In this document: in pieces, positions 16,697-30,550 of the stretch
Position numbering within the stretch: position 1 is the first letter of the stretch
Layout: every line of letters starts with the position of its first letter
From: Methanothermobacter marburgensis str. Marburg
Lineage (GTDB): Archaea > Methanobacteriota > Methanobacteria > Methanobacteriales > Methanothermobacteraceae
Assembly: GCF_000145295.1 (NCBI RefSeq)
Contig: NC_014408.1
Coordinates: forward strand, 630,001-662,000
Direction: 5' to 3'
DNA length: 32,000 bases
Translations under genes and position numbers: made by a program
The notes under the pieces: model-generated
The model's database searches: none
The model's input: the letters and a program-made list of their open reading frames with translations, nothing else
What the model was told of the DNA's origin: nothing

Positions 16697-18495
16697 ACGC
16701 GGAGATTTCAATGAAGATCAGATCACCCATAGTTTCAGTACTCGGACATGTGGATCACGGGAAAACCACCCTCCTTGACCATATAAGGGGCAGTGCAGTT
16801 GCCGCAAGGGAGGCGGGCGGTATAACCCAGCACATAGGGGCCACAGAGATACCCATGGATGTCATTGAAAACATATGCGGAGATTTCCTTAAAAAATTCT
16901 CAATCAGGGAGACGCTGCCAGGACTCTTCTTCATAGATACCCCTGGCCATGAAGCGTTCACAACCCTCCGTAAACGTGGAGGGGCCCTTGCAGACCTTGC
17001 AATACTCATCGTTGATATGAATGAGGGATTCAAGCCCCAGACACAGGAGGCCCTCAATATCCTGAAGATGTACAGGACACCATTCGTGGTGGCTGCAAAC
17101 AAGATAGACAAGATCCACGGCTGGAGGGCCCATGAGGGCCGACCCTTCATGGAGACCTTCAGCAAACAGGACATTCAGGTCCAGCAGAAACTGGACACAA
17201 AGGTCTATGAACTTGTGGGGAAACTCCACGAGGAGGGCTTCGAATCAGAGAGGTTCGACAGGGTAACCAACTTCGCCTCACAGGTCAGCATAATACCCAT
17301 AAGTGCGGTTACCGGAGAGGGAATACCTGAACTCCTCACCATGCTCATGGGACTTGCGCAGCAGTACCTCAGGGAACAGCTGAAGATTGAGGAGGATTCC
17401 CCTGCCAGGGGGACCATCCTTGAGGTTAAGGAGGAGACAGGTCTCGGGATGACCATTGACGCTGTTATCTATGACGGCATACTCCGTAAGAACGACACCA
17501 TCGCAATGATGACATCAACGGATGTCATATCCACCAGGATAAGGTCACTTCTCAAACCCAGACCCCTCGAGGAGATGAGGGAGTCCAGGAAGAGGTTCCA
17601 GAAGGTGGACGAGGTGGTGGCTGCTGCGGGTATAAAGATCGTGGCACCTGACATCGACGATGTAATGGCGGGCTCACCCCTCCGTGTGGTGACGGATCCA
17701 GAGAAGGTCAGAGAAGAGATACTCAGTGAAATAGAGGACATCAAGATAGACACCGACGAGGCGGGTGTGGTTGTAAAGGCCGATACCCTGGGGTCCCTTG
17801 AAGCAGTGGTGAAGATACTGAGGGACATGGATGTCCCCATCAAGGTGGCTGACATTGGGGACGTTTCAAGGAGGGACGTTGTGAATGCAGGAATATCCCT
17901 CCAGGAGGACAGGGTCTACGGGGCCATAATAGCCTTCAACGTGAAGGTGATCCCATCAGCGGCCCAGGAACTCAAGAACTCAGACATCAAACTCTTCCAG
18001 GGAAACGTCATCTACAGGCTCATGGAAGAATATGAGGAATGGGTCAGGGCCATTGAGGAAGAGAAGAAGAAAAAGTGGATGGATGCGATTATAAAACCTG
18101 CAAGCATAAGGCTCATCCCGAAACTTGTCTTCAGGCAGAGCAAACCGGCAATTGGGGGTGTTGAGGTCCTTGCAGGTGTCATAAAGCAGGATTACCCCCT
18201 CATGAACGAGGAAGGAGAAACGGTGGGTACCGTTGAAAGCATGCAGGATAAGGGTAAAAACCTCAAATCAGCATCACGCGGCCAGAAGGTTGCAATGGCA
18301 ATCAAGGACGCCGTTTACGGGAAGACAATCAATGAGGGCGACACGCTCTACGTTGACATACCCGAGAACCACTACAGGATACTTGTGGATGAACTTTCAG
18401 GGGATCTCACAGAGGAAGAACTTGATCTTCTGGAGAGGATAGCTGAGATCAAGCGGAAGAAGAATCCTGACTGGGGAATGAAGGCACCATTTTAA
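16693..18495 (+). CDS. infB: Translation initiation factor aIF5B (IF-2)
   Basis: [28 protein letters not shown] and NKID GTPase motifs. About 600 aa. ATGA overlap with ndk; ATG 16711 is an alternative start. Confidence 0.95.
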
Positions 18496-18921: not shown

Positions 18922-20148
18922 GTGAAAAATCAATCTGAAATAAACATTGGTCTTGTGGGGCACGTGGACCATGGTAAAACAACCCTTACAAAGGCCCTTT
19001 CAGGTGTCTGGACAGACACCCACAGTGAGGAAACCAAGAGGGGCATATCAATCCGTCTGGGCTACGCTGACATAACCTTCAGGAAGTGCCCCCAGTGTGA
19101 AGCCCCCATGTGCTACACAACTGCAGAGATCTGTGAGAGGTGCGGCACAGAGACAGAGCTTCTGAGAAAGGTATCCTTTGTGGATGCACCGGGACATGAA
19201 ACACTCATGGCAACCATGCTCTCTGGAGCCGCCCTCATGGACGGCGCCATACTGGTAATAGCCGCCAATGAGCCATGCCCCCAGCCCCAGACAAAGGAGC
19301 ACCTCATGGCCCTGGATGTGATAGGGGTTAAGGATGTTATCGTTGTCCAGAACAAGATAGACATAGTCTCCAGGGAAAGGGCCCTTGAGAGTTACAGGGA
19401 GATCAAGGAATTCGTGAAGGGTACATGTGCCGAGGATGCACCTATAATACCTGTATCTGCACAGCAGGGCGCCAACATTGACATTCTCATTGAGACAATT
19501 GAGGAGAAAATCAAAACACCCGAAAGGGATGTTGATAAGCCTGCCAGGATGTGCGTGGCCAGGTCCTTTGATATAAACAAGCCAGGGGTTGACCCTGAAC
19601 ACCTTGCAGGTGGGGTTATAGGTGGCTCACTTGTCCAGGGCAAATTCAGGGTCGGGGATGAGATAGAGATAAAACCCGGCATACAGGTTAAAAAGGACGG
19701 TAAACAGTCCTGGATGAGCCTCCACTCCACCATCACAGGCCTTGTGGCAGGGGGAGAGGAGATGGACGAGGTTGGTCCCGGGGGTCTTGTGGGTGTCGGA
19801 ACCCTCCTTGACCCCTCACTGACCAAGGCAGACTCACTTTCAGGTTCAGTGGCCGGTGAACCCGGCACCCTGCCACCTGTGAGGCACTCCTTCACAATGG
19901 AGACCCACCTCCTTGAGAGGGTCGTGGGTACCAAGGAGGAGACCAAGGTGGAGCCCATAAAGACAGGGGAGCCCCTGATGATAAACGTGGGTACCACAAC
20001 CACCGTGGGTGTTGTTAAATCAGCGAGGGCTGATGACGCTGATGTCGTCCTGAAACTACCCGCCTGCGCAGAGGAGGGTCAGAGGATAGCCCTATCAAGA
20101 AGGGTTGGAGCAAGATGGAGGCTGATAGGATATGGTATCATCAAATAG
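18922..20148 (+). CDS. eif2g: Translation initiation factor aIF2 gamma subunit
   Basis: [15 protein letters not shown], zinc ribbon CPQC...CERCG, DAPGHE, NKID. GTG start behind AGGTG. Confidence 0.95.
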
Positions 20149-20166
20149 GGTGGTTATAGACACCAA

Positions 20167-20173
20167 TTTTTTA
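20167..20173 (+). other. T TTT TTA heptamer (candidate -1 frameshift site, or homopolymer indel) followed by an in-frame TGA
   Basis: In the upstream frame the codons are aaT TTT TTA TGA. A -1 shift lands on ATG 20173, the frame of the PIN body. Confidence 0.35.
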
Positions 20174-20526
20174 TGATACCCCACCAGTTCAGGGTCGACA
20201 TAGTATCTGAGCTCCGGAGACTCTTCCCGACCCATGAGCTCCTTGTCCCATCCTTTGTGATAGGGGAACTTGAGGGTATAAGGAGGCATTCAGGTGGTGA
20301 TGCAAGGATAGCCGCCTCCATTGGCCTTGCCCTTGCACGAAGGCCACCATTCAGGGTGGTTGATGAGAAACTCCTTGAGGGCGAATCTGTTGACGATGCG
20401 CTTCTCAGGATCTCAGACGTGCTCTGCACCGCTGACCGGGAGCTCAGGGAAAGGGCGAGGTCACAGGGCATACCCGTCGTCTACCTGAGGCAGAAAAAAT
20501 ATCTTGCAGTTGATGGGCATATATAA
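20173..20526 (+). CDS. Fcf1/Utp24-type PIN-domain protein (COG1412-like). N-terminal catalytic strand is encoded out of frame upstream (20132/20150-20176).
   Basis: [18 protein letters not shown]...VIGELEG...VDDALL...[21 protein letters not shown] matches the Fcf1 pattern. Upstream, GTG GTT ATA GAC ACC AAT TTT TTA TGA gives VVIDTNFL* in the other frame. Confidence 0.8.
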
Positions 20527-20539
20527 TAGGAGGTTTTTT

Positions 20540-21070
20540 ATGAATCTGTGGAAGGATATTGAACCTGGACCATCAGTACCAGAGGTAGTATATGCAGTTG
20601 TTGAAATACCCAGGGGTTCAAGGAACAAGTATGAATACCACAAGGACCTCGAGGCATTCGCACTTGACAGGGTGCTCTACTCACCGGTATTCTACCCTGC
20701 AGAGTACGGTATAATACCCCGGACTCTCTACGATGACGGCGACCCCATGGACATCATGGTACTCATGGATGAACCAACGTTCCCTGGATGCATCATAGAG
20801 TCAAGGCCCATAGGCCTTCTCAGGATGATAGATGGTGGGGACCAGGACGACAAGATTCTGGCGGTGCCCGTGGAGGACCCCCACTACAGTGATGTTAATG
20901 ATATATCAGACATACCCCAACACATCCTGAAGGAGATAGCACACTTCTTCCAGGTTTACAAGAACCTTGAAGGTAAGGAGACAGAGATAATCGGATGGGA
21001 GGGCGCCGAAAAGGCACTTGAAGCCGTAAACCACTCCATAGAACTCTACAGAGAGAAATGTATGGAGTAA
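20540..21070 (+). CDS. ppa: Inorganic pyrophosphatase (family I)
   Basis: [28 protein letters not shown] and DDKILAV motifs. ATG 20540 lies behind TAGGAGGT. Confidence 0.95.
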
Positions 21071-21090: not shown

Positions 21091-21645
21091 TTGTATTATA
21101 TAACAAAAATTGTTGATACAGTCAGAATACCTCCAGACCGCTTTGAGGAGCCACTGGAGGAGGTTGCCATAGAGGTTCTCAACGAAACCTACGTTGGAAG
21201 GATGGACAGGAACCTCGGCCAGATGATAACTGTAAAGGAAATAGAGGACATAGGAATCGGAAAGGTCATAATGGGTGACGGCGCTGCCTACCATGAGGTG
21301 ACATTCACAGCCCTCTTCTTCAAACCAGAACTCCATGAGATCGTTGAGGGCGAGGTAATAGAGATTGCAGAGTTCGGAGCATTCGTGCGCATTGGACCGG
21401 TGGACGGTCTTGTGCACGTTTCACAGGTAACGGACGATTACATAACCTATGATGCCAAGAAGGGCTCCCTCACAGGTAAGGAGACAGGTAAACGCCTGGA
21501 TGAGGGCGACCTTGTAAGGGCAAGGATAGTCGCCCTGAGCCTCAAGGGCCGAAGAGAGGGCGTGAAGGTTGGGCTCACCATGAGGCAGCCCGGTCTTGGT
21601 AAATTCGAATGGATTGAAGAAGAGAAGAGGAAGAGTAAAAAATGA
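21091..21645 (+). CDS. rpoE: DNA-directed RNA polymerase subunit E' (Rpo7), with S1 domain
   Basis: (M)[14 protein letters not shown]; S1 fold [30 protein letters not shown] 21091; the nearby ATG 21078 frame stops after 12 codons. Confidence 0.92.
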
Positions 21646-21824: not shown

Positions 21825-22312
21825 TGTACATTCTACCGGAAAAACTCAGGGCAGAGCTCAAGAAACCCCTTGGGGAGCTCCACGAATCCTTCAGAGACAT
21901 TGATGTGGGGGATTCGTTTCTCATAACGGTTGGTGATGTTACAACACGCAATGCACTGGAGCATGGCCTCAAGCCGGACGTCAGCATAATAGATAACAGG
22001 ATCCAGAGAATGGATTCTGACCATGAATTCAATGACACAGCAACCATTATCAGATCCACAAACCCGCCAGGCACCATAACAGAGGACCTCTGGAACTCCA
22101 TCAAAAAGGCCATAGATGGGGCCAGAGCCGGTGAACGCTTCATGATAGTCGTTGATGGAGAGGAGGACCTGGCTGTTTTACCATCAATCTTAATGGCCCC
22201 GGCAGACACCGTCATCCTTTATGGACAGCCAAATGAGGGTGTTGTGCTGGTGAGGGCCATCGAAACACGGAAAAGAGCTGAAGAACTCATAAAAAACTTT
22301 GAGGAGGCATAG
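21824..22312 (+). CDS. GTP-dependent dephospho-CoA kinase (DUF359 family)
   Basis: LRAELKKPLGEL, ITVGDVTT and VDGEEDLAVLP are DUF359 hallmarks. The family was assigned DPCK function in Thermococcus (TK1697). GTG overlaps the spt4 TAG by 1 nt. Confidence 0.78.
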   Translation: MYILPEKLRAELKKPLGELHESFRDIDVGDSFLITVGDVTTRNALEHGLKPDVSIIDNRIQRMDSDHEFNDTATIIRSTNPPGTITEDLWNSIKKAIDGARAGERFMIVVDGEEDLAVLPSILMAPADTVILYGQPNEGVVLVRAIETRKRAEELIKNFEEA

Positions 22313-29823: not shown

Positions 29824-30051
29824 GGTTATCAACCTAAAATCAATTCTACAGATCATGAATCTTTAATCATGCGGGTGTTTATACTTTGGGGAGGAAGTAT
29901 ATATATATAGTTCCCAAAAACCCTGACCTGGCCGCCACATGGCCCACACCATAGTTTCTGATCTTTCAACGGCCCCCTATTTATATGTTGATGGGCTCCG
30001 GGATAAATTATAAATCATATCCCTGACAACAATTATTAAGGGAGGTTGAAT

Positions 30052-30550
30052 ATGAAGAAAATTTTATTTCTGTTTCTTGTGGCCGCAACGGTCCTTGTAT
30101 CTGGTTGTGTGAGTGAGGAGCCCCAGTATAAGAGCTTCTCTGACGGAAAAACTGAACTTCACATATCCCGCATCATGGGAGACCCTTGACCCTGCAGGGG
30201 CGCAGGGGGCCTTCAAGAAGGAGGTGGGAATCTCCAAGGATGTCATAGTTTACCTTGGTAACAGTACCTCAGAGCTTGCAGTTGCAGAGGTGAGTGCAGG
30301 CGCAGGTTACTACCTGAAGGATCCTGAAACCGTCAGGAAGGAGATGGCCAGCAATGAGGGTGTTGTATCATCCAGCATAATAAAGGTCGCCGGGCGTAAC
30401 GCAGCAATGGTGAAGGCCACCGATTCAACGACTCAGACGGTCTTCGTGTACCTGAAACTCAACAGGACAAGCGGCTATGCATTCATGTACAGCGGACCAA
30501 AGAATGACGCAACATTTGACTCCATACTTGAGACTGTGAAGTTAGAGTGA
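30052..30550 (+). pseudogene. Lipoprotein gene interrupted by a +1 frame break in an A5 run (30147-30151)
   Basis: ATG 30052 behind AAGGGAGGT encodes MKKILFLFLVAATVLVSGC (signal peptide plus lipobox), then stops at TGA 30187-30189. The body (track ORF 30113-30550, ...KLNFTYPASWETLDPAG...) is in the next frame. Removing one A gives the continuous reading ...KSFSDGKLNFTYPASWE... Confidence 0.7.

Follow-up and report, generated by a model that had tools for sequence, protein, structure and literature searches.

Programmed −1 ribosomal frameshifting was shown experimentally in the Archaea for the fucA1 gene of Sulfolobus (Saccharolobus) solfataricus, which encodes an alpha-L-fucosidase (PMC1616953, PMC8037382). 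This is the only cellular −1 frameshift demonstrated by experiment in Archaea, and it belongs to a narrow lineage. In the literature that we searched, including the main reviews on recoding, the archaeal entries were fucA1, haloviral tail genes and the Mg-chelatase; the PIN gene described here and the Methanobacteriales were not mentioned. Here, we describe a PIN domain gene downstream of the aIF2-gamma gene in a stretch of 32,000 nucleotides (nt) from Methanothermobacter marburgensis str. Marburg (NC_014408.1, positions 630,001 to 662,000 of the forward strand), which is called the window in the following. The gene is divided between two frames, and we found no published report of this frame break. 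The break is very probably maintained and functional. Our analysis strongly suggests a programmed recoding event, with −1 slippage on the heptamer U UUU UUA as the leading mechanism.

Anatomy and distribution of the frame break

The locus contains the following features, given in window coordinates, where ORF stands for open reading frame and aa for amino acids.

18922..20148, plus strand: aIF2-gamma gene, taken from the ORF list, with its stop codon TAG at 20146-48
20117..20121, plus strand: GGAGG, a motif resembling a Shine-Dalgarno (SD) sequence, 10 nt 5' of ATG 20132
20132..20176, plus strand: short upstream frame of 14 codons plus TGA, encoding strand beta-1 of the PIN domain and the first catalytic Asp (GAC 20159-61)
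20167..20173, plus strand: candidate shift site T TTT TTA; the T6 run is 20167-20172 and the core AAT TTT T, invariant across lineages, is 20165-20171
20174..20176, plus strand: 0-frame stop TGA, overlapping ATG 20173 (ATGA overlap)
20173..20526, plus strand: main PIN_9 ORF, 117 aa as annotated, with the remaining invariant acidic residues E46, D88 and D102 (numbering of the joined protein)
20186..20240, plus strand: weak local RNA hairpin 3' of the shift site, unsupported as a stimulator

In the window DNA, the short frame reads ATG20132 GTA TCA TCA AAT AGG GTG GTT ATA GAC ACC AAT TTT TTA TGA. It is in the +1 phase relative to aIF2-gamma, and from it a shift of −1 leads to the ORF that starts at ATG 20173. 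Where the two frames meet, the heptamer T TTT TTA (20167-73) has the X XXY YYZ phase. An earlier reading of the letters of this DNA, referred to as the sequence-only reading, had placed a frame change of the PIN gene on U UUU UUA followed by a stop, and the window sequence is as it described. Since TTTTTTA is common in the window, with 10 copies against 2.0 expected, the significance of the break rests on the position of the heptamer and on the comparative data and not on the motif itself.

The distribution of the break was analysed in a genome scan with one genome per species, which listed 80 loci. All 33 loci outside Methanobrevibacter (Methanothermobacter, Methanobacterium and unnamed Methanobacteriaceae) carried the break, and in each of them the D(T/A)NF strand and the MxxxQF ORF are brought into one frame only by a −1 shift. 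The 47 Methanobrevibacter loci, in contrast, were all in frame and read AAT TTT TT(T/C) ATG G. The break was also present in the named species M. wolfeii, M. tenebrarum and M. congolense, and Methanosphaera was frame-broken too (MVSSNHKAVVDTNF*, AAT TTT TGA TGA; the asterisk marks a stop). Thus, the T count in the orthologues, which the sequence-only reading had pointed to as a check, gave the break in all Methanothermobacter, Methanobacterium and Methanosphaera loci examined and T7 only in Methanobrevibacter.

A protein search against 1.8 billion representatives showed that family members elsewhere are nearly all full length. One further short cluster corresponded to a lineage with members named Heimdallarchaeota or Hodarchaeota, represented by ten clusters of 65-89% identity that are all called as 128 aa. 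Four divergent contigs of this lineage read (TTG) ... ATH TTY GAY TCN AAT TTT TTA TGA TYC, which corresponds to xxIIFDSNFL* followed by MIPxKF. In this lineage, the short frame starts at a TTG, with an intergenic GGAGAGG of its own. Since the identical codons are broken in the Methanobacteriales and in the Heimdall contigs, the same break is found in two phyla. It probably arose independently in the Heimdall/Hodarchaeota lineage.

A break in a homopolymer could be caused by a sequencing or assembly error or by a recent inactivating indel that creates a pseudogene. Both had been named as alternatives in the sequence-only reading, which added that a second homopolymer-associated frame overlap lies in the window at 30147-30151. 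The exact 117-aa protein was encoded on 12 contigs, of which six loci were fetched (the complete genome CP042937.1 and five metagenome assemblies). The T-run counted six in 6 of 6, and these loci differed from each other at nearby single-nucleotide polymorphisms. A scan of metagenome contigs found the T6 form of the junction 28 times and the in-frame T7 form 0 times. Moreover, the break is present in 42 distinct junction sequences over genera and two phyla, and both frames are under purifying selection. Sequencing or assembly error is refuted by these data, as is a strain-specific inactivation, and the chance that any of these accidents accounts for the break is negligible.

The overlap at 30147-30151 does exist and has no bearing on the T6 run. 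Here, a signal-peptide ORF (30046-30189) and an ORF at 30113-30550 overlap in different frames at an A5 run. The former is of the lipoprotein type (MKKILFLFLVAATVLVSGC...) and the latter encodes 145 aa; removal of one A in GGAAAAACT would join them as SFSDGKLNFTYPASW.... An exact look-up of the 45-aa product of the signal-peptide ORF gave no match. The overlap may reflect a genuine frame break, an error or phase variation.

The start signals of the PIN gene lie within its neighbour, as the last codons of aIF2-gamma (TGG AGG ... TAT GGT) hold both the ribosome-binding site and the start codon. Because GGAGG precedes ATG 20132 by 10 nt and ATG 20173 has no SD sequence within 20 nt upstream, unlike the neighbouring genes, we place the start of the PIN gene at 20132. 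In 22 of the 23 distinct frame-broken Methanobacteriales sequences, the Trp-Arg codons of aIF2-gamma are TGG AGG and create the GGAGG, whereas all 28 Methanobrevibacter sequences have TGG AGA. Likewise, the Tyr codon is TAT, giving ATG with the next G, in 23 of 23 frame-broken sequences versus TAC in 20 of 28 from Methanobrevibacter. GGAGG and ATG inside the aIF2-gamma codons are therefore specific to the frame-broken group in this comparison. The gap between the aIF2-gamma stop and the main ATG (24-51 nt) is divisible by 3 without exception in the frame-broken Methanobacteriales, whereas it can have any phase in Methanobrevibacter.

Two other ways of entering the PIN gene were ruled out. The sequence-only reading had set ATG 20132 in brackets in front of GTG 20150, with which it began the VVIDTNFL strand. 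The bracketed ATG turned out to be the conserved start of the short frame, whereas most other species have no start codon at the position of the GTG; the ATG in the Tyr-Gly codons of aIF2-gamma is universal in the Methanobacteriales. The idea that ribosomes read through the stop of aIF2-gamma and enter the PIN frame was discarded because of extra in-frame stops at several loci.

Methanothermobacter branches outside the group of Methanobacterium, Methanosphaera and Methanobrevibacter in the GTDB taxonomy. The in-frame Methanobrevibacter gene is then most simply explained as a reversion by insertion of one T, from T6 to T7, an order of events that is based on this taxonomy and not on a tree. The insertion accounts for NFFM in Methanobrevibacter versus NFLM in the outgroup. 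After the reversion, the GGAGG and the ATG in aIF2-gamma would have decayed and a separate start would have been gained.

Some individual loci and proteins stood out. The contigs L013 ('Methanomicrobiales archaeon') and L033 ('Fibrobacterota bacterium') contain an aIF2-gamma/PIN locus that is typical of the Methanobacteriaceae and has the break; they are probably mis-binned or mislabelled contigs of metagenome-assembled genomes (MAGs). The proteins P0347 and P0348 have 117 aa and Methanobrevibacter-like features, yet start with MIPFQF; either the break occurs in a lineage near Methanobrevibacter, or the gene caller picked an internal ATG. In one Methanobrevibacter MAG (L020, 2001-2025), there is a stop in the N-terminal extension and Tyr replaces the catalytic Asp (KNK*FVIYTNFFM), so that this copy is possibly degraded or of low sequence quality. 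In the Heimdallarchaeota-type contig JABAOC010007574.1 (L102, 2300-2400), aIF2-gamma itself is called as two genes of 219 and 196 aa. A −1 frame change lies there near CCTAACCTAAAAGAGAC, adjoining an A4 run, where the related contig L104 appears intact. This split may represent a second break or result from an error in assembly.

The heptamer also occurs elsewhere in the window, where it is about five-fold over-represented. Sites include 20534-20540, 16890-16896, 21636-21642 and 22290-22296, and several copies lie at the borders of genes, such as one that separates the GGAGG of the pyrophosphatase gene from its ATG. The excess is compatible with oligo-T terminators or AT-rich intergenic signals of this genome. 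An Rfam search found no known RNA family in 19900-20700.

Constraint on the junction nucleotides

Judged by its substitutions, the upstream peptide (xxxD[TAS]NF) evolves as coding sequence. In 28 distinct Methanobacteriales sequences, the entropy of the six codons before AAT was 0.84, 0.23 and 1.34 at codon positions 1, 2 and 3, respectively. The upstream Asp is invariant as GAC or GAT, and many changes are synonymous, such as CTT/CTG/TTA/CTA/CTC and TCC/TCA/TCG. The Heimdall set had the same coding pattern (TCC/TCA/TCG, ATA/ATT/ATC and TTC/TTT).

The junction itself was compared in 42 distinct frame-broken sequences of 60 nt from Methanothermobacter, Methanobacterium, Methanosphaera and the Heimdall/Hodarchaeota lineage. 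AATTTTT and ATG were invariant in all of them, and a stop codon overlapped the ATG in all of them as ATGA, TAATG or TGATG. The base following the ATG was A in 35 of the 35 junctions whose TGA depends on it, and G in 31 of 31 distinct Methanobrevibacter junctions. AATTTTT was followed by T in 34 of the junctions, by G in 4, by A in 3 and by C in 1. The run is thus T6 in 34 junctions, which have the canonical X XXY YYZ heptamer, and T5 in 8. When this variable base is T, A, G or C, the main frame reads TTT, TTA, TTG or TTC and always encodes Phe or Leu, as in the consensus of the family at that position. The upstream frame reads Leu, stop, stop or Ser. This behaviour is compatible with a shift on AAT-TTT before the variable codon.

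The core is kept despite disfavoured codons. In Methanothermobacter, TTT makes up 0.28 of the Phe codons, AAT 0.41 of the Asn codons and TTA 0.04 of the Leu codons, and AAT TTT T likewise uses disfavoured codons in Methanobacterium lineages of about 50% GC. Two in-frame outgroups read AAC TTC CTA and AAC TTT CTG. The in-frame relatives of the Heimdall group have a Phe in place of the Met of the ATG (DSNFLFIP).

The strict association of stop and start codon raises the possibility of a naturally split gene. The short frame would terminate at the stop overlapping the ATG, translation would reinitiate there with no frameshift, and the 14-22-aa peptide would join the 117-aa body non-covalently, like the S-peptide and the S-protein of RNase S. 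We regard this as a serious rival, though rather unlikely. It would explain the overlap in 42 of 42 junctions, the A after the ATG and the invariance of the ATG in the frame-broken lineages, as opposed to the Phe in the in-frame Heimdall relatives. In addition, since ATG 20173 lacks an SD sequence, its use would depend on coupling to the short frame. However, a split gene leaves unexplained why AAT and TTT are invariant and never AAC or TTC in the 42 junctions, GC-rich genomes included, when the outgroups use AAC and TTC. The C-terminus of the peptide would also vary (NFL, NF or NFS), while the main-frame reading stays Phe or Leu.

The T-run could alternatively act during transcription. If the RNA polymerase added one U in the run, part of the mRNAs would be in frame (NF[F/L]M) and translated normally. 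The conservation of the T-run agrees with this, all four variants (T6A, T5AA, T5GA and T5CA) are put back in frame by one added U, with the consensus Phe or Leu, and the in-frame T7 of Methanobrevibacter is its exact genomic equivalent. However, the run has just 5-6 T and is shorter than the length of about 7 or more, mostly at least 9, that productive slippage requires. Documented productive transcriptional slippage occurs on about 7-11 identical bases. In the Mg-chelatase cassettes, the efficiency of slippage scales with 9-11 A (PMC3711429). Archaeal T5-T6 tracts rather tend to terminate transcription than to extend the RNA (PMC2253867), and the conserved overlap of stop and ATG would be left unexplained. 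We therefore consider transcriptional slippage improbable.

The joined PIN domain

When the two frames are joined, a complete domain is obtained. The Pfam model PIN_9 (PF18477) matched the 117-aa product only from profile position 9 onwards, with 77.5 bits, whereas the joined 131-aa product matched positions 1-116 of 116 with 95.4 bits, at a cut-off of 26.3. The structure of the AF0591 PIN protein (PDB 1o4w) aligned contiguously over the frame join (AVVDTNVLM). Both results confirm the proposal of the sequence-only reading that joining the frames yields one contiguous PIN domain with the first catalytic Asp. Its assignment to an Fcf1/Utp24-type PIN held for the fold but not for the family, which is PIN_9: the Pfam Fcf1 model (PF04900) stayed below threshold with 14.5 versus 21.4 bits. 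No NCBIfam model matched the PIN product.

An AlphaFold2 (AF2) model of the joined protein had a pLDDT of 92.5. Its best Foldseek matches were the AF0591 PIN (1o4w), Utp24/Fcf1 chains of small subunit (SSU) processomes and 5yz4, with TM values of 0.71-0.76 and 22-30% identity. In the main ORF, E46, D88 and D102 do not vary. The Asp of beta-1 is found only in the upstream frame, where it is invariant in all upstream peptides, and the four acidic residues of the PIN active site are therefore complete only with the upstream frame. The conserved position of the gene by translation and ribosomal genes is compatible with a ribosome-related role of the protein.

Annotation pipelines all call the N-terminally short product (117-128 aa) and label it PilT, VapC or PIN protein. 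It is conceivable that the 117-aa protein is the only relevant product, for instance an inactive PIN that binds RNA, and that the short frame is a leader that couples the SD-less ATG to aIF2-gamma. The uniform calls of 117-125 aa and the conserved coupling architecture would be in line with such a leader. There would be no need, however, to keep the exact beta-1 motif xxxD[TAS]NF under long purifying selection in two phyla. Moreover, the invariance of the other three catalytic acidic residues argues for an active nuclease, for which the fourth is required. We give a mere coupling leader little credence.

The structure also bears on the split gene. In the AF2 model, the break falls between beta-1 with its turn and helix 1, a position where an interruption would be structurally tolerable. 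Against this, beta-1 is the central strand of the PIN sheet, and we know of no natural enzyme that obtains a catalytic strand from a free peptide of about 14 aa. A naturally split enzyme would have a micropeptide of 14-22 residues, made from its own tiny ORF and comprising the central beta-strand with the catalytic Asp, that completes the active site of a PIN body of 117 aa produced by reinitiation. That such an RNase-S-like arrangement was kept in two archaeal phyla seems unlikely to us, but if it were true, the nuclease activity would possibly be titrated by the supply of the peptide.

Decoding of the junction and known systems

The anatomy of the locus, the conservation of both frames, the shift-prone core and the start signals are directly observed in the DNA, and they can be combined in a model of −1 frameshifting. 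Translation would initiate at ATG 20132 via the GGAGG at 20117-21, both embedded in the last codons of aIF2-gamma. The ribosome would translate the 14 codons of strand beta-1 with the first catalytic Asp. At U UUU UUA (20167-73), right before the 0-frame UGA, a fraction of the ribosomes would slip by −1 into the frame of ATG 20173 and synthesise the complete PIN domain of 131 aa (14.8 kDa; ...VVIDTNF(L/F)MIPHQF...). Ribosomes that do not slip would terminate on the UGA and probably reinitiate at the overlapping AUG, giving the 117-aa protein (13.2 kDa) that lacks the Asp. Through the efficiency of slippage on the ribosome, the shift site would set the ratio of active to inactive protein and might thus be used for regulation.

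Decoding by programmed −1 ribosomal frameshifting is our preferred reading, which we hold tentatively and with somewhat less than even confidence. In its favour are the invariant U UUU U core, the presence of the heptamer in 34 of 42 junctions, the adjacent stop and the variable base that keeps Phe or Leu.

Several points weigh against it. First, 8 of the 42 junctions are without the canonical heptamer, seven having U UUU UAA or U UUU UGA and one U UUU UCA; these junctions (T TTT N) would allow a slip in the P-site beside the stop. Second, the strict ATG and the overlapping stop are needed by termination-reinitiation but not by pure frameshifting. Third, no conserved downstream stimulatory structure was detected by folding of the single sequences, by synonymous-codon randomisation or by RNAalifold, a result that also agrees with a split gene. 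Fourth, in Archaea, oligo-T tracts of 5-6 serve as terminators of transcription (PMC2253867, PMC8716108), and this role could add to the conservation of the T-run, which Methanobrevibacter also keeps. Finally, in one pair of Heimdall contigs (L102/L103), the short frame lacks a canonical start. The programmed −1 frameshift proposed by the sequence-only reading is thus upheld in part. The maintained break, the phased heptamer and the conservation of both frames agree with it, whereas the 8 junctions lacking the heptamer and the absence of a conserved stimulator do not, and the overlapping stop and ATG fit reinitiation in a split gene, an alternative absent from the sequence-only reading. Both the 131-aa and the 117-aa product may well be made.

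In the search for stimulatory elements, the window hairpin (20186..20240) had a minimum free energy of −22.1 kcal/mol and z = −1.92, with 9 of 200 shuffles as good. In the synonymous-codon control, the Methanothermobacter sequences gave z values from +0.3 to −1.6, and the RNAalifold consensus downstream of the shift site was −0.68 kcal/mol. Upstream, GAGG or GGTG motifs 6-20 nt before the T-run were inconsistent among the lineages by inspection, so that no SD-like stimulator was recognised. The adjacent stop was the sole recurrent candidate stimulator.

A hairpin of Gln-Phe and Glu-Leu codons was rejected as a frameshift-specific element. The invariant Gln-Phe codons (CAG TTC) are the exact reverse complement of the invariant Glu-Leu codons (GAA CTG) eight codons later (window 20185-20215), with a few compensatory CAA/TTG changes (alignment columns 25-30 / 49-54). 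The hairpin exceeded the synonymous-codon controls in many Methanobacterium sequences, and the mean z was −2.8 in the frame-broken sequences (n=33) and −2.2 in the in-frame Methanobrevibacter (n=41). This CAGTTC/GAACTG hairpin is therefore also present in in-frame genes, whereas Methanothermobacter, Methanosphaera and the Heimdall group lack it.

Several known systems share parts of this arrangement. The ATGA or TAATG coupling of adjacent prokaryotic genes has the same type of overlap as the PIN junction, where the downstream ATG has no SD sequence. Such coupling normally links separate genes, whereas the two PIN ORFs are consecutive pieces of one small domain. The Utp24/Fcf1 proteins of the eukaryotic SSU processome and the AF0591 PIN (1o4w) have the same fold and acidic tetrad as the joined protein. 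Unlike the PIN gene of the window, the eukaryotic and most archaeal genes are uninterrupted. The frame break suggests that the level of a Utp24-like nuclease is controlled at decoding, and it implies that the current annotations in the frame-broken lineages (117-128 aa) all omit the catalytic N-terminus.

The heptamer U UUU UUA of HIV-1 gag-pol is identical to the site in the window and is in the same phase. At either site, Leu or Phe could be built in at the second codon, a point discussed in PMC5009743. In contrast to the PIN site, HIV-1 gag-pol relies on a downstream stem-loop and its 0-frame continues; the PIN site is immediately followed by a stop, lacks a conserved structure and occurs in archaeal hosts. 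The −1 frameshift in the Mg-chelatase gene chlD of Methanococcus and Methanocaldococcus (PMC3711429, PMC9227772) is, like the PIN break, conserved in Archaea, with purifying selection on the homopolymeric site. It differs in its poly-A of 9-11, in the likely contribution of transcriptional slippage, in the joining of two large domains and in the gene family.

The closest parallel is fucA1. Like the PIN gene, it is an archaeal cellular gene present as two ORFs related by −1 with a homopolymeric slippery heptamer in the overlap (A AAA AAT in fucA1), and its full-length enzyme is obtained only after the shift, as we propose for the PIN gene. However, fucA1 is found in one species or strain group and both of its halves are long, whereas the upstream part of the PIN gene has 14-22 codons with a stop that overlaps the ATG. 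The fucA1 shift was shown by experiment, whereas that of the PIN gene is proposed from sequence. The PIN break is conserved over most of a methanogen order in a near-universal archaeal gene that lies by translation-factor and ribosomal-protein genes, and it recurs with the same codons in another phylum, in Asgard archaea of the Heimdall/Hodarchaeota type. As a natural system, the locus lends itself to studies of archaeal frame maintenance, of slippage next to a stop and of reinitiation. If −1 frameshifting is true for the PIN gene, the case would be unusual among these systems because it reaches deep into the phylogeny, recurs in Asgard archaea and is located in a core gene cluster.

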